From Candidatus Yanofskybacteria bacterium (GTDB lineage: Bacteria; Patescibacteriota; Minisyncoccia; 2-02-FULL-40-12; GWA2-44-9): DNA of 50,975 nt. This document shows positions 96 to 50,922 of this stretch, piece by piece. Positions within the stretch are counted from its first letter, which is position 1; the number at the start of each line of letters is the position of its first letter. The stretch covers positions 1 through 50,975 of the forward strand of contig PLYL01000022.1 in assembly GCA_003151795.1 (NCBI GenBank). Reading direction: 5' to 3'. Position numbers and translations under genes: made by a program. Below the pieces are notes generated by a model. That model did not search any database and was not told where the DNA came from. It saw only the letters and a program-made list of their open reading frames with translations.

Positions 96-157
96 GCCGA
101 GGCTCTGCGAGGCAGTGGCGGGACGATTCATTCTCGCTCAAAAAAAGTTCGAGCAAA

Positions 158-166
158 TGATATAAT
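158..166 (+). promoter_or_regulatory. Extended -10 promoter candidate for LSR1
   Basis: TGaTATAAT immediately upstream of the CCACCA core of the internal repeat. Confidence 0.55.
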
Positions 167-170
167 GACA

Positions 171-302
171 CCACCAAACGAAACATTGTCGGAATTAAGA
201 AAACGGAGCGATTTTGCGGGAGCCAAAATCGCGCTATCATTTTTTTCAAAACCCTTTCCGCCTACGGCGGAAGCCGTGAATTCCCAAAGCTCCCCCCAAT
301 TG
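171..302. repeat. 132-bp inverted copy of 1717-1848 (LSR1 3' end plus tRNA CCACCA)
   Basis: ccaccaaacgaaacattgtc...ctccccccaattg is the reverse complement of caattggggggag...gacaatgtttcgtttggtgg. Confidence 0.95.
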
Positions 303-1848
303 AAATCATGAAAGAACTCAAACCAAAATATTTTCTCTACGCGAGGAAATCAACAGAGGATGATGACCACCAGATAATGTCTATTGAGGCACAGCTTTTT
401 GAATTGCACGAATATGCGCGTAGAGAAAATCTTGAAATTCTTGAGGAATTTCAAGAGTCGAAAAGCGCAAAGAAACCGGGTCGTGAACTATTTAACGAAA
501 TGATGGCCCGCATTGAAAATATGGACGGCGTAGGCATCCTCGCGTGGCATCCAGACCGTCTTGCTCGCAATAGTGTCGACGGCGGGCGCATCATTTACGC
601 AGTAGACACGACCAAAATAGTTTCTTTACGCTTTCCGACATTTTGGTTTGAGCCAACTCCGCAAGGCAAATTTATGTTGCAGGTGGCGTTCGGACAGAGT
701 AAGTATTACAGCGATAATCTAGTTGAAAATATTACGCGTGGTATCCGCCAAAAAGTCCGTCGAGGCGAGTGGTTGGTGCGCGCTCCCTTTGGCTATGTGA
801 ATAATCCAAAAACGAGAAATATTGAACCTCACCCGACTAAATCTCGCATTGTGGTGAAAGCGTTTGAAGAATACGCCAAAGGGACGCACACCCTCGGCAC
901 TATCGCGGACTTTTTGGCGGATCACGGCGTGAGTACGAAAGGAACGCCACCTGCCAAAGCTTCCGTCGCTCGTATGCTCTCAAATCGTGTCTATCTCGGC
1001 TTTACATACCACAAGGGCGAGTATTACGACGGAAGCTTTGCGCCAATTATTTCTCCGACACTGTTTGAAGCAGTCCAAAAAATGCTTGCGAAAAAATCTC
1101 GCCCTCGCGTGCAAAAAGTACCGAACCATTTTCCATTTGCACAATTCGCTCGGTGCGGTGAGTGCGGAAGTATGATTACGGCTCAATATGCGACAAATCG
1201 TTTTGGTACTAAATATACTTACTATCGCTGTACCAAAAAGAAAGGTGTTTGTCATCAGCCGTATCTATCATCTTCCGCACTCATTTCGCAAGCAAAAAAT
1301 CTGCTTCAATCAGTGTCGCTTCCTCTTTCAGAAATTGAGAACATGGAAAAGCAAATTGACTTGTGGGACAAAGAGTCAATTTCCGAAAGAGGAAGTGTTG
1401 CCCAAAATCTTAAAACCAAACTTTCCGAAACGAAGGAGAAGCTGGACAAACTTGTTTCCATTTATCTTGACGGCGATATTGAACGCGAAATATATTTACA
1501 GCGAAAAGACCTTCTCCTTCGTCAGAAAGCAACGTTTGAGGAAAGTTTTAAGGATTTTGGGCAACAGAGAAAAAATTGGGTCGAACCCTTGCGGAGTTTC
1601 GTTTTGTCTTTGAGAGAAGCCGTTATTTTGGAAAAAAGCGAAAACTATTTCGCATGGAAAGAGTTTTTCCAAAAAATCGGCTCTAACCCTATTCTCAAAG
1701 ACAAAACGCTTTCATGCAATTGGGGGGAGCTTTGGGAATTCACGGCTTCCGCCGTAGGCGGAAAGGGTTTTGAAAAAAATGATAGCGCGATTTTGGCTCC
1801 CGCAAAATCGCTCCGTTTTCTTAATTCCGACAATGTTTCGTTTGGTGG
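171..1848. mobile_element. LSR integrative element 1 at the tRNA-Ala(GGC) 3' end; left part continues beyond the window start
   Basis: LSR gene reads into the antisense tRNA 3' end; 132-bp inverted repeat 171-302 / 1717-1848 ends at the tRNA CCACCA. Confidence 0.8.
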
Positions 1849-1864
1849 ACCGTACCGGACTTGA
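308..1864 (+). CDS. Large serine recombinase (resolvase, recombinase and Zn-ribbon domains plus coiled coil)
   Basis: YARKS catalytic motif, DRLARN, PFGY, CGECG...YYRC...C. Confidence 0.95.
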   Translation: MKELKPKYFLYARKSTEDDDHQIMSIEAQLFELHEYARRENLEILEEFQESKSAKKPGRELFNEMMARIENMDGVGILAWHPDRLARNSVDGGRIIYAVDTTKIVSLRFPTFWFEPTPQGKFMLQVAFGQSKYYSDNLVENITRGIRQKVRRGEWLVRAPFGYVNNPKTRNIEPHPTKSRIVVKAFEEYAKGTHTLGTIADFLADHGVSTKGTPPAKASVARMLSNRVYLGFTYHKGEYYDGSFAPIISPTLFEAVQKMLAKKSRPRVQKVPNHFPFAQFARCGECGSMITAQYATNRFGTKYTYYRCTKKKGVCHQPYLSSSALISQAKNLLQSVSLPLSEIENMEKQIDLWDKESISERGSVAQNLKTKLSETKEKLDKLVSIYLDGDIEREIYLQRKDLLLRQKATFEESFKDFGQQRKNWVEPLRSFVLSLREAVILEKSENYFAWKEFFQKIGSNPILKDKTLSCNWGELWEFTASAVGGKGFEKNDSAILAPAKSLRFLNSDNVSFGGPYRT

Positions 1865-5462: not shown

Positions 5463-5652
5463 GGGCCTGTCGTAAAGTGGTATTATACGACATTCGTTCA
5501 CCCGCCCAAACTTTCCCCTGGGCCCATAGCTCAGCTGGTAGAGCGCGTCATTCGCATTGACGAGGCCGCCGGTTCGAATCCGGCTGGGTCCACAGGAAAG
5601 TTTAGGCGGGCAAGTTGCCGGGTCGGGAGTCCGATTCTCCCCAGGTCCACCA
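5463..5652 (+). tRNA. Interrupted tRNA-Ala-like gene (outer), with a roughly 115-nt insert in the anticodon loop
   Basis: 5' half GGGCCTG-TC-GTAA-AGTGGTA-TTAT-A-CGACA-TTCG; 3' half TGCCG-GGTC-GGGAG-TCCGATT-CTCCC-CAGGTCC-ACCA; G3:U70 pair. Confidence 0.75.
5520..5592 (+). tRNA. tRNA-Ala(CGC), nested inside the outer tRNA-like gene
   Basis: Canonical cloverleaf: GGGCCCA/TGGGTCC, CGTCA-TTCGCAT-TGACG, GGTTCGAATCC. Confidence 0.96.
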
Positions 5653-7119
5653 GAGAGGAAATTGCAAGTTTTTGGGCATAGGGCCGCCGCAGGCGGCCAC
5701 CAAATCGTAAGGAATTTTGGGCGAAAAAAGCAGTTGGCGATTCTGCAAAATGCAGTTCGAGCCGATATTTTTAAGAAATGTTGTCATTTCCGATTTGTTT
5801 TCAAATTCAAGCAGTTTAGAGGCTTGATTCAAGGACAAAACAAACTCACGAGCCGGTTCGAGCCAAGATAATCCTATTTGTTCAAAATCCGTAATTTTCT
5901 CGCCAAGCCCTACCTTTTGGATAACAAGGATTTCCTTTCTTACTTTGTAGTCATCGGCAGAAATGACCTCGTTAAGATATACGTCAAGAAGTTTTTGGAG
6001 TTTGGCCTCAATCTTGGTTAATTCTGTTTTGAAATTTTGAACAGTAGTTTTAGCTTCCTCTTTTGCTCGGCTTTCATCTTTTTCTAGCTCGGCTAAAACT
6101 TTCTTGGTGTCTTGGCTTGACAAAGAAACTTTTTGAAGAAACGACTTAACTTGTTTATATAGTTCTTCATCTCGCAAAAAATACTTTTCTTGGCACGGCC
6201 CTTTCTTTTTCGTGCACCGATAGTAAATATATTCTCTACCGCTTGGCTTGATTTTCTTTTCGGCTGTTATAGCTGCAGAACAAGGACATTTCATTAAGCC
6301 AAGAAAAGCAAAATTATGTTTCTTAATTTTTTGCGATTTTCCTTTTTCTCGCATGATCTCTTGTACTCTATCAAAAAGTTTCTTTGAAATAAGCGGCTCG
6401 TGAGTTCCTTGGAAAATTTCTCCTTTGTATTTCATCAGCCCTATATAAAAAACATTTTGGAGTATTTTAGGGACTTGCGAGATATACATACCTTTATCCA
6501 AATTGCTTTTGGTACTTACTCGCATATACCACTCGGCTAATTCTCGGAGGTTGTAATTTCCAGTGGCATAAAGCTCAAAAAGTTTTTTTACTTTGCGGGC
6601 TTTTTCTGTATTAACATCAATCCCGCGTGTCTTTGGATTATTGAGATAGCCGAGCGGTGCTTTGCTAGGCCAAACTCCGTTTCTCACTTTTTGTCTCATC
6701 CCACGAGTTACATTTTCACGTAGGGCGTCCACATAATATTTTGATTGGCCAAAAGCAATTTGGAGCATAAAAAGTCCTTGTGGCGTTGGTTCAAACCAAA
6801 ATGTTGGAAATTTCAACGCTTTAATCAAGCCGCGATCTATCATGTGAATTATTCTTCCGCCATCTACGGAATTACGAGCAAGACGGTCGGGATTCCACGA
6901 AAGTATGCCGTCCGCTTTTCCTCTCTCAATCAATGCCAACATTTCTGCGAATTTAATTCGCCCAGGTTCTTTGGCAGTTTTTGCCTCTTGAAGAGAGGCG
7001 ACGATTTCAAGTTTTTCTTTGGCGGCAAATTCTTTTAACTCAAAGATTTGGGCCTCAATACTCAAAATTTGTCTATCGTCATCTTCGGTGCTCTTGCGAG
7101 CGTAAAGTATATATTTCAT
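5602..7119 (-). CDS. Large serine recombinase
   Basis: YARKS, DRLARN, PLGY, CPC...YYRC...C, coiled coil; C-terminus reads into the antisense tRNA. Confidence 0.95.
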   Translation of the reverse strand: MKYILYARKSTEDDDRQILSIEAQIFELKEFAAKEKLEIVASLQEAKTAKEPGRIKFAEMLALIERGKADGILSWNPDRLARNSVDGGRIIHMIDRGLIKALKFPTFWFEPTPQGLFMLQIAFGQSKYYVDALRENVTRGMRQKVRNGVWPSKAPLGYLNNPKTRGIDVNTEKARKVKKLFELYATGNYNLRELAEWYMRVSTKSNLDKGMYISQVPKILQNVFYIGLMKYKGEIFQGTHEPLISKKLFDRVQEIMREKGKSQKIKKHNFAFLGLMKCPCSAAITAEKKIKPSGREYIYYRCTKKKGPCQEKYFLRDEELYKQVKSFLQKVSLSSQDTKKVLAELEKDESRAKEEAKTTVQNFKTELTKIEAKLQKLLDVYLNEVISADDYKVRKEILVIQKVGLGEKITDFEQIGLSWLEPAREFVLSLNQASKLLEFENKSEMTTFLKNIGSNCILQNRQLLFSPKIPYDLVAACGGPMPKNLQFPLWWTWGESDSRPGNLPA

Positions 7120-7152
7120 ATGGTTTTGATTAAAAATTTTCTTTTCCCAAAA

Positions 7153-7253
7153 TGCAGAATCGCCAACTGCTTTTTTCGCCCAAAATTCCTTACGATTTGG
7201 TGGCCGCCTGCGGCGGCCCTATGCCCAAAAACTTGCAATTTCCTCTCTGGTGG
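7153..7253. repeat. 101-bp inverted copy of 5647-5747
   Basis: tgcagaatcgcc...ctctggtgg is the reverse complement of ccaccagag...ggcgattctgca. Confidence 0.95.
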
Positions 7254-7338
7254 TCTATTCTTAAAGTAGTTCGGACGCATTTCGCCGCCAAGGGCGGCGG
7301 GGATCTGGCCAAAAATTCCGAACCGAAATTCTGAACTT
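7250..7338. repeat. 89-bp inverted copy of 8294-8382
   Basis: gtggtctattcttaaag...ttctgaactt is the reverse complement of aagttcagaa...ctttaagaatagaccac. Confidence 0.95.
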
Positions 7339-7446
7339 AAAAACTGCCAAAGAACCTGATAAAAATATCGGCTCGGACCGCATTTTAATTTTGGGAAAAG
7401 AAAATTTTTAATCATTTATTATTAAATCATTAAGCATATAATTTTT

Positions 7447-8229
7447 ATGTCTAACGAAGAATACAAACCAATACCCAAGGAGGTTACAGGCGCAGAAACA
7501 TCTATGCCTGCTGAGCATAGTGAGGCAAGAAGCAAAGATTACAAAACATACGACATTCCAAGACTCACACTAGATTTAACCAACGAACTTGAAACCAAGC
7601 TTATTGTCCCACTTGAAGAAGCTCGTCAAGTCAAGGCTGCTTTAGAATCACTCGAAGATCTTGCGAAGCGTGTTCCAATTAGAATCATCAAAAGTTCTTT
7701 TTCTGGCGGTAGTGGTCGTGCAGATCCTCATAACGAAGGTCCCGGCCCGTGGGCTCCTGAAACAGCAATTAGATACTTGGAATTAGAAGGTCCAGAAGTT
7801 GGATCCCTCAACGAACTTGCATCATCTCTTCGCTATCTAATTGTGGATTTTAACACCGCGAGGAAAGCTGCTGTATCAATTAAACAACAAGGTGGATCAG
7901 GGAAGAAGGCTTTTATTATGATACCTAATTCTGAAGAGAATGGCCTCTATGTAAATCTACATAAGGCCATAGATAAGAAGGGTATAATCGACCACTTTGA
8001 ACCAATAGCACAAGCCAAACTGGATAATGTCACTCAGGAGTGGATTCCACGACTTAGGTCTAATATAAAGAGTACTTTCTTAAAGGCAGTGGAGATTCTT
8101 CGAGAATCCGCTGCAAATCCATCAAGTTGGTCGGATTCGAGTGACCCCTCAACATTCCCCAAGGATCGTCCTGAAACTCTCTTGAGTTTAGCAAAGGAAA
8201 TTGAGGAAATGGAAAGACATATAAACTGA
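7447..8229 (+). CDS. Hypothetical protein, sole cargo of element 2
   Basis: 260-aa ORF with ATG start, divergent from the LSR; no recognised motif. Confidence 0.75.
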   Translation: MSNEEYKPIPKEVTGAETSMPAEHSEARSKDYKTYDIPRLTLDLTNELETKLIVPLEEARQVKAALESLEDLAKRVPIRIIKSSFSGGSGRADPHNEGPGPWAPETAIRYLELEGPEVGSLNELASSLRYLIVDFNTARKAAVSIKQQGGSGKKAFIMIPNSEENGLYVNLHKAIDKKGIIDHFEPIAQAKLDNVTQEWIPRLRSNIKSTFLKAVEILRESAANPSSWSDSSDPSTFPKDRPETLLSLAKEIEEMERHIN

Positions 8230-8479
8230 GTCTGGGGCCTTAGAGTTCAAATAAGAAGAGAATTTGCCGCCAAAGAAAAACTTGAAATTGTCAAAGTTCA
8301 GAATTTCGGTTCGGAATTTTTGGCCAGATCCCCGCCGCCCTTGGCGGCGAAATGCGTCCGAACTACTTTAAGAATAGACCACAACGTTGTCAACATAATT
8401 CATTGGAAGTGGATAAGTGTCTAGTGAAAATAGAGATCCCTAAATTAGGCCTTGTTTTTCCTTAGTTTTTAATGCTTAA

Positions 8480-26170: not shown

Positions 26171-26505
26171 ATGAATCGAGCCTGGCGCAACGTGGCGACG
26201 AAATCGTCCCGAATAACCGAGATGTCAGCCGGAATCTTTTTCGTTACCACTACTACGGTATCGCATGATGGCATGTTGGGCAAGCGATCGGGCCAAATAA
26301 CATCGGCTAAGAGCCGGCGAACTTTATTCCGAAGCACGGCTTTGGGAGCGAATTTGGCGGCGACGATAAAACCAAAGCGGGGATAGCCGCGAGACGATGG
26401 GAGTGCTTTCAGAAACAAAAAGGAGCCGTTCAGAGCCTTTCCTTTTTTAAAAACGGCGTCGAAATCCTTTTTGTTCTTGAGGCGATTCTTGGTCGGGAGA
26501 GCCAT
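26167..26505 (-). CDS. rnpA: RNase P protein component
   Basis: RLKNKKDFDAVFKKG, RFGFIV, KAVLRNKVRR. Confidence 0.92.
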   Translation of the reverse strand: MALPTKNRLKNKKDFDAVFKKGKALNGSFLFLKALPSSRGYPRFGFIVAAKFAPKAVLRNKVRRLLADVIWPDRLPNMPSCDTVVVVTKKIPADISVIRDDFVATLRQARFI

Positions 26506-46700: not shown

Positions 46701-49178
46701 ATGGGATTTGAAGGACCGCCACAAATTAAAAAGGTTGAGAAGTTGCCTGAACCAATTACGCCTCCGTCAGAGGAGGTTATTGAGTCGAAACTAGAAAGCC
46801 GAGAACAGCAAGCAGAAATTATAACCGAGGCTCAAGAAGCGCGTGGCGGTATAGCGAAAAACCTATTAACCTCTGAGATAGTTAGTAACGGACTGGATGT
46901 TCTGCCATTTGCCGGTAGTGGCAAGATGGTAGTTGAAGCTGTGTATGGTGGCACATTATCAGGTAGAGAACTATCAGGCAAAGACAGGATTATCCACGGA
47001 GCTATGGGTGCAGGTATGCTCGCGTTAGATTTCACGGGTGTCGGTGAAGCTATTGAGCTTGGCGGCAAAGCCATACCTCTTGTTGAAAAAATCGGAGCGT
47101 CATTAGCTGAAAAAGGAGCAATAAAAGGTGCTGCTATTTTTACAAAGACAGCTGAATTTATGGGTCGACATCCAGAACTTACTGCTAAAGCAGAAGCTTA
47201 TGCCGAAGGAGAATTAAGAGGAGTGATTACTCAAATAAAAGATTATCAAAAAGAAACTAGACCCGTTCAAGATGTTTCTGTAGAAGAACCTGTAATTGAA
47301 TCTTCACTAATTCCTGGAAGGAATTTAAATGATAATAAAGCTGTCGAGAAAGAATCTGAAAAATCTGTTCAACAAGAAGCCATTCAAGAGGTAGCAACTG
47401 AATCTCCATCACAAACTGAAACAGAAGTTGTGGGTAGAGAGAGTAGAGATTTTAGCAAAAAATATGGGTCGTTAGCTCGCAATGTTCTTGCGGGACAATT
47501 AAGGCACATGAAGGCAGAGTTATCGCAAGGTCGGTCAGGTAAACAAGAATCTTTACAACAAGAAATTTTGGAGAAGGAAAATAATCTTGGTGCTTTGGAA
47601 CAAGAATATAGTCAGCTAGAACAAGAGCTTAATGATAAAAAGAGTAGTTTTGTTAGTCGATTATTTAAACGCACTGAACTATCAAAGTTAGAGCAAAACT
47701 TACAAGAACGCAAAGCTACATTAGATGAGGTAAAAAAAGATATTACAGAACGACAACAATTATTATCAGAAGTTAGTGGATTAGCAGGAGCTGAACAAGA
47801 CCGTACGGAGGTGCGAAAAAAATTGGACGAGTTTTATAAAGACCAAGCTGGACTTAATGAACAATTCGAAAAGGAGCAAGGTGCAAGGAGTGTTGAAGAA
47901 ATTAGTAAAAAAGAAGGGGTATTATTTATTCATGCCATGTCCTTAGCGGGAGAGGTGCAAAACGGTTCAGAATACAATAACTCTGTTATTAACGGCGGAG
48001 CAGTTGATATTAAAACTAAATTAAAGTTAATTATGGGCTTAGAGCCTACGTTATCTTGTTCTACAATAAAAAATGGAGACACTAGAAATGAAATGTAACA
48101 AAAGTCAGGAATTATTCTTGGGCAAGGTAAGGTATTATTCGCAAAAGGCGAAGATGCTCGGACCATTGTTGATAGTAGCCCACTCACAAGACGTTCAAAA
48201 AATGAAACGGAGGATTATAATCCCCTAAGAAGTGACTTACAGCAAAATCCGGAAGGTAACATAAAAGAAGCTATCAATCACAAAGTTGATGGTAAAGAAG
48301 CATATATATCGGGTTATAATGAATTGATAGTTGAAAATCCACAATGTGCAGGTTTCTTTTTTGACGCAGAATCCTATAAAAAAGATACAGCTAAAATTGA
48401 GGAGTTACAAAAATTAGCTGAAGAATTTGGAGTTCCGTTGTATGAATGGAGAGATGGGAAAATGCAAGCATTTGAAGGTTTGGATAAAACAAATGGACAA
48501 GAAATCAGTACTTCTGAGTTACTAACTCGAGCACCAGAGCCATCGTCTGAAATTAAAAGACAATGGCTTGAGGATACTATAACTGAAAGACCATTTAAGA
48601 TAAATACAGAAGTTCAAAGAATGTACACGTCTTATGGTGACGGCGAGTTGGCTTATAAAATACTTACAGAAAAAGACCCTAGAAAGGCTTCAAACGCTAA
48701 AAAATTTAGTACGGATTATGCTTTAATAAAAAGGAAATTTAATGAGGATGAGGATCGGGTAGATGTGAGTGTAAACTCTCCAGAAAATTATTTACAAGAA
48801 ACAGATAATATTGTTAAGAGGTTGGAGAAAGATATTCAAAAATTAACTGTAGAACTTGCAAAACCTAACATTAAATACGAAAAGGCAAGATCATTGATGG
48901 AAGAAAAACAAGGATACAAAGAAAACATCGAGACTGTCTATGCTCTAGTTTATTCTATTAGCGAAACTGCTAGAAAAAATGACAATTTACCGATAGTAGG
49001 AATGATTGATAAATGGCTGATAGATCATTCGGCTAGAGAAAGAATGCAACAGTTCGTAAGCGAAAGAATTGATGAAGATGGGCAACTTAAATTCATAGAA
49101 GAAAAAGATGTGCCAAAAGAAGTTAGGGAAAGATTGGTAACTAATGCAAGTCTGGATACATTAAAGAAAGCAGCATGA
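46701..49178 (+). pseudogene. Polymorphic-toxin-like protein (PT-TG-like N-terminus, coiled coil, ART-like domain) split by one in-frame TAA at 48096-48098
   Basis: ORFs 46701-48098 and 48324-49178 share a frame and the 75 codons between them are open. Confidence 0.7.
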
Positions 49179-49423: not shown

Positions 49424-50746
49424 ATGAACAATACAACCCAAGTGCCAATCGGGGCTATGGCCAAGGGAATACCAGCCCCCATAAAGGTCAGATATTGCCT
49501 GTATGCAAGAAAAAGCACCGAGTCAGAAGAACAGCAGATCCTCAGTATAGATAGCCAAATCAAGGAGATGCTGGCTATAGCCGAGCGTGACCATCTGGAA
49601 GTAGTAGAGATCAAGAAGGAATCCCACTCTGCCAAGGAAGCCGGACAACGACCAGTCTTCAATGAAATCGTGGATGAAATCAAGATCGGCAAATTCAATG
49701 GCATCCTGACCTGGGCGGCCGATCGTATCTCCCGAAACGCCGGAGACTTAGGCCGAATCGTCGATCTCATGGATAGCCAACAACTCATTGAAATCCGAAC
49801 CTATGGGCAGAAATTCACCAATAGCCCGAATGAGAAGTTTCTTCTTATGATTCTCGGGAGCCAAGCCAAGCTCGAGAACGACAACAAGGTCGTAAATGTA
49901 AAGCGAGGGCTAAGAGCCAGATGCGAGATGGGCTTGTGGCCATGTACTGCCCCGACCGGATATCTAAACAGCACCAGCAAGGAGAAGAGTTGTCATGTTG
50001 AGTTAGATCCCCACCGAGCACCCGTCATCAAGAAGATGTTTGAAAAGATAGCTTATGAAAAATACAGCGGCCGGAGATTACACGCTTGGCTCAAAGATGA
50101 ACTGAAATTCACGACTAAGAATGGCAAGCCACTTACAATCAGTAATATCTATCTGACTCTTCGCAATACCTTCTACTATGGTAGTTTTGAATATCCGAGA
50201 GGCGGAGGTCAGTGGTATACCGGCAAGCATACGCCCATTATTACTAAGGAATTGTTTGATGCCGTTCAAGCCCAGATGTCAGACTATGAACTCAAAGGAA
50301 GCCATAAGGAGTTTGCCTTCACGAAATTAATGACCTGCGGTCTCTGTGGCAGTGGCATTACCGCCGATGAGAAATTCAAGAAACAGCAGAATGGCAATCT
50401 CCATCGCTATGTCTACTATGGTTGCTCAAGATTCCAAAATAAGAATTGCAAATCCGGCTATATGCGAGAGGAAGATTTGATTGAACAACTAGCTGGTCTT
50501 ATGGACAAGATCGACTTGGACGAGATTGGCATAAAAGAACGAATCAAATCTGAAATCGAACGGCACAAGAAATTCCAATCAGGGCTTCTTGGTATCAGAG
50601 AAAAATCAATCAAAGTTGGCGATATTGATATCCGGAACTATGCTAAATATATACTAAGAGACGGGACGATATTGGAGAAGCGGGAGTTACTAACTTGTCT
50701 GAGGAGTAAGATAACGATGGCGAACAAAGAAATTAAAATCATCTAG
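49424..50746 (+). CDS. Large serine recombinase (short C-terminal region)
   Basis: YARKS, DRISRN, PTGY, CGLCG...YYGC...C. Confidence 0.94.
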   Translation: MNNTTQVPIGAMAKGIPAPIKVRYCLYARKSTESEEQQILSIDSQIKEMLAIAERDHLEVVEIKKESHSAKEAGQRPVFNEIVDEIKIGKFNGILTWAADRISRNAGDLGRIVDLMDSQQLIEIRTYGQKFTNSPNEKFLLMILGSQAKLENDNKVVNVKRGLRARCEMGLWPCTAPTGYLNSTSKEKSCHVELDPHRAPVIKKMFEKIAYEKYSGRRLHAWLKDELKFTTKNGKPLTISNIYLTLRNTFYYGSFEYPRGGGQWYTGKHTPIITKELFDAVQAQMSDYELKGSHKEFAFTKLMTCGLCGSGITADEKFKKQQNGNLHRYVYYGCSRFQNKNCKSGYMREEDLIEQLAGLMDKIDLDEIGIKERIKSEIERHKKFQSGLLGIREKSIKVGDIDIRNYAKYILRDGTILEKRELLTCLRSKITMANKEIKII

Positions 50747-50796: not shown

Positions 50797-50850
50797 GACT
50801 CAACCGAACCGGTGTCGCCTTGACCCCGTTCGGTCGGTCTCACATGCCTG

Positions 50851-50922
50851 TGCGCCCGGAGGGAATCGAACCCCCACCAACAGCTTCGAAGGCTGCTGCT
50901 CTATCCGTTGAGCTACGGGCGC
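50851..50922 (-). tRNA. tRNA-Arg(TCG)
   Basis: GCGCCCGTAGCTCAACGGATAGAGCA-GCAGC-CTTCGAA-GCTGT...GGTTCGATTCC...CGGGCGCA. Confidence 0.96.

Follow-up and report, generated by a model that had tools for sequence, protein, structure and literature searches.

Background

Serine integrases are valued in genome engineering; they act in one direction, and reversal normally requires a second protein. The integrases of Mx8 and of the SSV type are tyrosine recombinases, and in both groups the recombination site lies within the integrase gene. In Mx8, attP is inside the integrase coding sequence; after integration the gene is a recombinant one whose 3' end is new, and its enzyme is changed and not inactivated (PMC6070905). 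In the SSV-type 'suicidal' integrases of archaeal viruses and plasmids the site lies within the open reading frame (ORF) and integration disrupts the gene (PMC7253208). A serine recombinase gene with a comparable arrangement is DsiB of Dehalococcoides, which overlaps attP/attL at the 3' end of ssrA (McMurdie et al. 2011, PMC3146451). The stop codon of DsiB depends on the neighbouring sequence, and the authors suggest that it is maybe fully functional only on the circle (PMC3146451). Here we describe two small integrative elements in a 50,975-nucleotide stretch of Candidatus Yanofskybacteria bacterium (the window), which is the whole of contig C22 in a genome of 25 contigs and 765,936 bases (G000). 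In both elements the gene of a large serine recombinase (LSR1, LSR2) runs across the crossover into a tRNA gene, and an inverted copy of the gene end stands just upstream of the gene's own start. We consider it probable that the arm of the attP site in these elements is dual-coded, that integration exchanges a selected C-terminal tail of the recombinase, and that the inner copy is a spare attP.

The overlap of gene and attP is already in print for Mx8 and DsiB. The initial annotation had cited Mx8 and SSV1 as precedents for attP sites inside integrase genes; this holds, and the precedent is wider than it had stated, as DsiB is a serine recombinase for which the overlap had already been noted. 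The family described here works like the attP-in-gene integrases of the Mx8 and SSV type, but it stands outside those protein families and uses serine chemistry. As in Mx8, the crossover falls in the element's own gene and the integrated gene has a different 3' end. Unlike Mx8, these elements use a large serine recombinase, the exchange affects no more than a short helix outside the canonical fold, and an inverted spare attP lies inside the element, for which the available part of PMC6070905 mentions no counterpart. With the SSV type the family shares a recombination site within the integrase ORF, but the SSV gene is split in two whereas here the whole canonical fold is kept and only the tail changes. 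The resemblance to DsiB is that the overlap of gene and attP/attL involves a serine recombinase and the 3' end of a tRNA or, in the case of DsiB, of the tRNA-like ssrA. DsiB differs in that it belongs to large islands, which carry an integration module of six genes and a direct repeat of 20 bp, and in that the overlapping part is divergent in DsiB alignments, whereas the attP-form tail of this family is conserved with a coding signature. No inverted inner attP is reported for DsiB in the accessible text of PMC3146451.

The phage enzymes of Listeria A118 (LI), SPbeta, Bxb1 and phiC31 have the same domain set and the same fold (Z 14-18), and follow the same rule for the zinc-ribbon DNA motif, whose distance from the centre is about 5 bp shorter in attB than in attP. 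In contrast to them, the family targets almost any tRNA, at the conserved T arm and acceptor end, carries its attP in the recombinase gene with a second, inverted attP inside the element, has an extra C-terminal helix and is without a conserved directionality-factor gene. Inversion switches (invertons, Hin/Gin type) show both orientations of a repeat-flanked segment in one population; here 1 of 120 assemblies is flipped and 0 of 8 cargo pairs are opposite, and contigs built with k=31 are blind to orientation. Literature searches on serine recombinases in Patescibacteria and the Candidate Phyla Radiation, and on serine integrases with attP inside their gene, found no description of this element family. 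New here are the origin of the R-T codons in a motif that mimics the tRNA T-loop and shows the attP/attB shift, the frame-specific evidence for selection of the tail as protein, and the long-tail proteins on element-sized contigs.

Structure of the elements

Element 2 extends over 5647-8382 (2736 nt). Its features, with the target gene, are as follows.

5602..7119, minus strand: LSR2, 505 aa, integrated short-tail form (ORF; Pfam Resolvase, Recombinase and Zn_ribbon_recom; AlphaFold 2 model)
5647..5747, minus strand: outer A arm, the last 34 LSR2 codons up to the crossover; attL-type junction tRNA/A' (inverted repeat and junction alignment)
7152..7334, plus strand: inner copy of the LSR2 gene end, consisting of A arm 7153-7253, core GTGG 7250-7253 and B arm 7250-7338; an intact attP-type site
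7271..7276, plus strand: zinc-ribbon-type motif TCGGAC of the attP arm, encoding R (7272-7274) and T (7275-7277), followed by H and F (7278-7283)
8294..8382, minus strand: outer B arm, attR-type junction B'/X with core CCAC at 8379-8382; element end (inverted repeat and junction alignment)
5463..5652, plus strand: tRNA-Ala(CGC)-like target; the LSR2 tail is antisense to its T arm and acceptor end
7447..8229, plus strand: cargo gene, 260 aa (ORF)

The integrated LSR2 ends ...FPLWW-TWGESDSRPGNLPA and a stop, and its last 14 codons (5602-5646) are antisense tRNA. The part of the gene before these codons is repeated. A perfect inverted repeat of 101 nt (100%; 5647-5747/7153-7253) places a copy of the LSR2 3' end just upstream of the LSR2 start. 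In the copy, the ORF at 7152..7334 (plus strand, 60 aa) reads MQNRQLLFSPKIPYDLVAACGGPMPKNLQFPLWW-SILKVVRTHFAAKGGGDLAKNSEPKF and a stop, that is, ...FPLWW-SILKVVRTHF.... A perfect inverted pair of 89 nt (7250-7338/8294-8382), the third in addition to the gene-end repeats of LSR2 and LSR1, overlaps the LSR2 inner copy by 4 nt.

These repeats define three junctions. In the sense of the recombinase (crossover marked by a slash), the gene end runs into the tRNA as ...CTCTGGTGG/ACCTGGGG..., the inner copy reads ...CTCTGGTGG/TCTATTCTT... and the far end of the element reads ...CAACGTT/GTGGTCTATTCTT.... The three (S1, tRNA/A'; S2, A/B; S3, B'/X) have the core GTGG in common, which is the pattern of attL, attP and attR. 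On the opposite strand the core CCAC at 5647-5650 corresponds to positions 71-74 of the target tRNA. When the outer halves of the element are joined they yield an empty target, ...CAGGTCCAC/AACG..., which places the crossover at tRNA positions 71-74 and leaves the tRNA whole.

ARAGORN misses the target tRNA because its anticodon loop is interrupted. The insert of 118 nt (5497-5614) is made of an 18-bp stem (5498-5515 paired with 5594-5611) and, inside it, another tRNA-Ala(CGC), which is complete (5520-5593). The uninterrupted form occurs in the same sample: in a public contig only CA stands between 5496 and 5615, and ARAGORN calls this sequence as a tRNA-Ala(cgc) of 74 nt.

Element 1 lies at the start of the window.

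308..1864, plus strand: LSR1, 518 aa, integrated form (ORF; the same three Pfam domains as LSR2)
1717..1848, plus strand: outer A arm, the LSR1 gene end to the crossover (inverted repeat and junctions)
128..302, minus strand: inner copy of the LSR1 gene end, consisting of the copy 171-302 and B arm 1-170, cut by the contig start

LSR1 ends ...SFGG-PYRT and a stop, inside the antisense of tRNA-Ala(GGC) at 1843-1918. Its 3' end is likewise copied just upstream of its start, in a perfect inverted repeat of 132 nt (100%; 171-302/1717-1848). The inner copy (128-301 of the window, minus strand) reads ...NSDNVSFGG-VIISFARTFFERE and a stop at 130-128; its motif TCGAAC is the reverse complement of 147-152. 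The initial annotation had given these four C-terminal readings, two integrated and two from inner copies, and all are exact to the base. It had also taken the inner copy for an attP-form tail and proposed that integration swaps the recombinase C-terminus; the crossover inside the gene, the junction triads and the repeat found throughout the family bear this out.

Within the window element 1 shows S1 and S2, and its S3 is on contig C2 (G000:C2:46576-46604), which links contigs C22 and C2 through the missing cargo of element 1. This far junction (flank/GTGG/TGTCATTATATCATTTGCTCG; locus L007, 1076-1105) directly precedes a 20-N scaffold gap on C2. Contigs C2 and C15 of the genome each carry one further element with a triad of S1, S2 and S3 that share a 4-nt core. 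Altogether the genome carries 8-9 large serine recombinase genes (on contigs C2, C6, C15, C16 and in the window), and in 7 of 9 the 3' end faces the 3' end of a called tRNA. No called tRNA stands beside the C2 and C15 triad elements. These two adjoin similar sequences of about 70 nt (GCCACTCGGGTTAAGT...GGCAGTATAAGGGTTTC...; G000:C2:21927-21982 and C15 about 47310-47376), for which there was neither a tRNA call nor a matching Rfam family. A direct repeat of the C2 copy lies at 26408-26463 (88%). A further recombinase of the window (49424-50746, 440 aa) belongs to a more distant type; its gene ends at a stop codon of its own, some 100 nt short of tRNA-Arg(TCG) at 50850-50922.

The 260-aa cargo of element 2 has no Pfam match above the cut-off (DUF4695 is sub-threshold, with E 0.0019 and 18.8 bits against 27) and no NCBIfam or PADLOC match.

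A family of small elements in Patescibacteria

Relatives were collected by a scan of one genome per species (587 relatives, 80 loci examined) and a metagenome scan (471 relatives, 80 loci examined). With the four elements of the genome itself, 164 elements were examined. The gene-end repeat is present in 120 of them (58/80 genome loci, 58/80 metagenome loci and the four own-genome elements). Among the 22 genome loci lacking it, 11 have less than 300 nt upstream, four are without the 3' end of the gene and one has the repeat at a contig edge, which leaves six true exceptions. Both repeat pairs are present and abut in 54 loci, with element sizes of 2408-5815 nt (median 2872). An assembly artefact was considered as the source of the layout and rejected, as the same layout is found in 116 of 160 loci from independent assemblies in addition to the four elements of this genome.

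Of 116 loci, 78 have a called tRNA on the opposite strand that ends at the junction and 10 run out of contig first, while many of the other 28 junctions still read D/E-S-N-P. Fourteen tRNA isotypes serve as junction targets. The elements usually contain a single variable ORF as cargo, almost never shared even between recombinases that are about 90% identical, and comparison of the cargo of relatives found no conserved small gene. Viral contigs contain only four weak relatives, so this is not a phage feature. The relatives also assign the genome of the window to Patescibacteria. From their sequences, the relatives appear to form a large group of very small Patescibacteria integrative elements made of a recombinase and usually one cargo gene.

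The recombinases themselves are large serine recombinases, with catalytic and Recombinase domains and a zinc-ribbon domain that has four Cys and an inserted coiled coil. The catalytic domain PF00239 is found with E 9.6e-21 in LSR2 and 5.1e-22 in LSR1, and R8 and S10 of the YARKST motif are invariant or nearly so in family alignments. PF07508 and PF13408 are also detected, residues C278, C280, C302 and C309 are invariant in the alignments, and long helices occupy 335-452 in the AlphaFold 2 models (P0001, LSR2). The named LSR subfamilies of NCBIfam score below their cut-offs; the best are XisF (96 bits against 375) and CcrB (92.8 against 900).

The R-T codons as a DNA motif

An arginine at position +7 after the crossover is common to both elements of the window and the two further elements of the genome. 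A readable inner flank (at least 36 nt) is available in 109 of the 120 repeat-bearing elements. TCGAAC, with at most one mismatch, is at a fixed place in 97 of the 109, mostly 17 nt after GGYGG, and in 93 of these 97 it is in the recombinase frame. The inner copies encode R-T at +7/+8 in 87 and R-T-x-F/L at +7 to +10 in 85 of the 109. The recurrence of R-T-x-F/L is far beyond chance, and the RT-x-F that the initial annotation had seen at a similar offset in the two alternative tails of the window is a property of the family.

Much of this recurrence is set by the DNA. Arg +7 is encoded by CGA in 35 of 42 non-redundant sequences. Across the gene bodies CGA accounts for 202 of 1072 arginines (19%), and the bias at +7 implies constraint at the DNA level. 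Together with its neighbours the motif, (A/G)TTCGAAC, is the antisense of the tRNA T-loop, and it occurs only on the tRNA/B-arm side; the A arm and the downstream flank are without it. Its distance from the crossover differs between the two sites. Of 78 elements that allowed placement of the T-loop-like hexamer in both, 57 have it 5 bp further from the crossover in the B arm than in the tRNA and 6 have it 4 bp further; the remaining 15 mostly pick a second hexamer. For element 2 the motif is at +18..+23 in the B arm and +13..+18 in the tRNA, where the copy is GTCCGA (5629-5634). For the Listeria integrase, Rutherford et al. 2013 (PMC3783163) report that the motif for the zinc-ribbon domain (ZD) stands 5 bp closer to the centre in attB than it does in attP, and this published shift predicts the 5-bp offset of the family motif. 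The R-T codons would thus be the recombinase's own predicted distal binding motif. Mimicry of the T-loop explains how the family uses nearly any tRNA as a landing site.

A GC-rich hairpin, GCCGCC AAG GGCGGC, directly follows the RTxF codons of element 2 (7284-7298, mirrored in 8294-8382). Relatives keep it by compensatory changes, as in GCCGGC GAA GCCGGC of L012. The compensated hairpin accounts for the A-A-x-G-G residues at this place, and residues beyond F +10 are therefore not read as protein conservation.

Evidence for selection of the tail as protein

Conservation of the arm at the DNA level only, the outcome that the initial annotation had named as fatal to its proposal, is not what the sequences show. 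The first 11 tail codons contain a stop in 0 of 42 sequences in the recombinase frame, compared with 15 and 23 of 42 in the other sense frames and 7, 11 and 21 of 42 in the antisense frames. Codons beginning with TA at +3 are TAC (10) or TAT (2) and never TAA or TAG, with the third position otherwise free. Ile/Leu at +2/+3 is kept despite synonymous and two-step codon changes. Within codons, the mean pairwise BLOSUM62 score of the translated tail was compared with 300 independent shuffles of the DNA columns, in 57 non-redundant of 92 sequences. The recombinase frame (frame 0) gives z=11.4, and 0 of 300 shuffles reach the observed value; frames 1 and 2 give z=1.0 and 2.2. The coding A arm gives z of 9.2, -0.1 and 3.0 in the same test. 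Information content is higher at the second than at the third codon position in 7 of 10 tail codons, which was judged too weak alone. These sequence comparisons point to protein-level constraint in the recombinase frame and to an arm that is probably dual-coded. The RTxF tail of the initial annotation therefore stands as a protein feature constrained in frame, while its R-T core is itself set by the DNA motif TCGAAC.

Proteins that carry the long tail occur naturally. With the 60-aa ORF as query (98% of the query matched) a protein of 517 aa, P0001, was found that ends ...FPVWW-AILKVVRTHFAACGGENLAKNSEPKP (AILKVVRTHF...). Its 90% cluster has 15 of 25 members listed, 11 of them full length. Among these listed members three are long-tail proteins, on contigs of 1970, 3233 and 3345 nt, and eight have a tRNA-antisense tail, on contigs of 7,189-157,400 nt. 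An integrated twin, L088, which is 99% identical to P0001, has an element size of 3244 nt. The short contigs of the long-tail proteins fit what excised circles would look like. We infer that the long form is made from the excised circle and that its tail has a function.

In the AlphaFold 2 model of P0001 (mean pLDDT, the predicted local distance difference test, 80.4; input alignment of 53 gene bodies and 77 inner-copy tail fragments) the C-terminus consists of a last hairpin at 455-466, a short helix at 471-479 and a helix at 489-513 that starts at V-W-W, with residues 491-500 at pLDDT 83. Solved large serine recombinases align only to residues 1 to about 474-478 of the model (Z of 17.8/17.6 for SPbeta 9y66/9dxh, 15.3 for Bxb1 9iu2, 14.9 for LI 4kis and 14.2 for phiC31 9rah). 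The tail therefore reaches past the canonical fold, which the integrated protein retains in full. In the model of integrated LSR2, residues 472-505 are all below pLDDT 50. The models are suggestive of a long tail that is ordered and an integrated tail that is disordered.

The inner copy, inversion and hybrid elements

The inner copies at 7152-7334 and 128-302 are most simply read from the family comparison as its standard inverted spare attP and not as genes. Other short inverted copies stand nearby.

5747-5773/7360-7386 (P), 6963-6982/7339-7358 (R1) and 7000-7036/8256-8292 (R2): inverted-copy pieces of the LSR2 gene or its upstream region, packed beside the B arms

Piece Q, of 27 nt, has inverted copies at 7127-7153/7388-7414, a similar distance upstream of LSR2 and of the cargo gene. 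Pieces of the Q, P, R1 and R2 type (not always all four) are present in 16 of 16 related elements and are identical within each element.

The geometry of inversion is as the initial annotation had described it: a flip between the two 101-nt arms would give LSR2 the long tail. A flipped layout is present in 1 of 120 assemblies, L124 (tRNA-Leu/A'-recombinase-A/B-type arm), where the tRNA adjoins the inner copy and the arm is out of frame. Cargo shared between relatives is in the same orientation in 8 pairs and opposite in 0. In public Logan contigs with k=31 (runs X5 and X6) an 'opposite strands' joint of 7250/8383 is compatible with either orientation; it is uninformative because flipping a segment between perfect repeats that exceed k does not alter the set of k-mers. 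In some metagenome loci the recombinase runs into a foreign B arm, one from another subfamily of elements, in frame in L090 and out of frame in L115, L124, L145, L148 and L164, and the inner copies of L073 and L146 are out of frame. Such hybrid junctions suggest that elements may exchange arms between attP-type sites.

Proposed mechanism and alternative explanations

In the proposed mechanism the recombinase would join the attP of the element to the 3' end of a tRNA gene (attB), with the crossover at tRNA positions 71-74. As the attP crossover lies about 12-40 codons before the end of the recombinase gene, the gene on the free circle would end in the far-arm tail, x-hydrophobic-hydrophobic-(E/D/K)-x-(I/V)-R-T-x-F, and after integration would read into antisense tRNA instead of the far arm of attP. 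TCGAAC would be bound by the zinc-ribbon domain, with the T-loop copy placed 5 bp further from the crossover, and this binding would fix the R-T codons. The same tail would also be translated and selected as protein; in the model it forms an amphipathic helix outside the canonical fold. Established here are the sites, the tail swap, the DNA motif with its shift, the coding signature and the natural long-tail proteins; the mechanism that would unite them is probable.

Several points weigh against this mechanism. The excised circle, the empty tRNA site and the expression of either isoform are predictions of the mechanism, and the short contigs of the long-tail proteins could be mis-joins across the inverted repeat instead of circles. 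No joint skipping 5647-8382 was found in the k=31 Logan contigs, which drop rare variants, so that this negative is uninformative. In element 1 the motif is at +19..+24 in the arm and +13..+18 in the tRNA, a shift of 6 bp by hand count. The frame signal comes from related sequences, for which the other two frames are the only control for relatedness. The ordered and disordered tails of the models may differ as an effect of the alignments, since LSR2 was run without tail fragments and P0001 with 77. Finally, an out-of-frame foreign B-type arm follows the recombinase in five relatives and the inner copy is out of frame in two, which indicates that the tail is not indispensable for persistence of the gene.

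A more far-reaching reading, which takes up the proposal of the initial annotation, is that the two isoforms differ in activity and set directionality without a separate factor, the long form integrating and the tail-less form excising, or the reverse, with inversion of the A arm restoring the long form. The elements are too small and variable for a conserved directionality-factor gene, with usually one rarely shared cargo ORF, and use of 14 tRNA isotypes together with 8-9 copies in a 766-kb genome implies that they move. The tail is under protein-level selection, its modelled helix comes directly after the last zinc-ribbon strands beyond the fold of the solved enzymes, and Mx8 provides a case where integration gives the integrase a new 3' end with changed properties (PMC6070905). 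The tRNA/A'-LSR-A/B layout of L124 is the product that such an inversion would leave, but it is the single flipped assembly of 120 and its tail is out of frame. The eight same-orientation cargo pairs also speak against it, and orientation is unreadable from the k=31 contigs. We regard this reading as rather unlikely. The same low expectation attaches to its more specific form, a built-in switch in which the circle-encoded long form would perform attP x attB and the tail-less form would excise or invert, factor-free, against the spare attP; there the spare inverted attP would store the tail and let the element toggle or re-donate it.

At the other extreme, conservation of the tail might be a mere by-product of a DNA binding site, the arm not being translated to any effect and its open frame incidental. 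The preference for CGA at Arg +7 (35/42 against a background of 19%), the identity of the motif with the antisense T-loop and its attP/attB shift, the hybrid junctions that read the same DNA out of frame, and the compensated hairpin that explains A-A-x-G-G after RTxF are all as this would have it. It does not account for conservation that is specific to one frame (z=11.4 against 1.0 and 2.2), for 0 of 42 in-frame stops, for Ile/Leu at +2/+3 kept through synonymous and two-step codon changes, or for the existence of natural full-length long-tail proteins, and we hold it to be improbable. Least credible of all is that the ORF at 7152-7334 is a separate small gene, a 60-aa mimic of the recombinase C-terminus acting for example as a regulator. 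An ATG lies exactly at the repeat boundary in element 2 and its closest relatives (L008, L015), but of 62 elements only 6 have an ATG no more than 3 nt from the boundary, and in 6 of the 62 no start codon (ATG, GTG or TTG) precedes the junction. The start is 32 nt from the divergent LSR2 start, which leaves no room for a promoter outside the LSR2 gene, and the ORF matches no Pfam family. As an independent gene the ORF was rejected, its start codon not being conserved. The dual-coded attP arm with a swapped tail and a spare inner attP remains the preferred explanation.

Conclusions

These elements appear to move without room for a directionality-factor protein. Two natural isoforms and three natural types of site make control of direction within the integrase itself, a long-standing question, directly testable. 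If true, the isoform switch would be a factor-free control of serine-integrase direction, written into the overlap of gene and binding site. A stretch of DNA that encodes a protein tail and is at the same time the predicted binding site of that protein would be a compact example of overlapping constraints.

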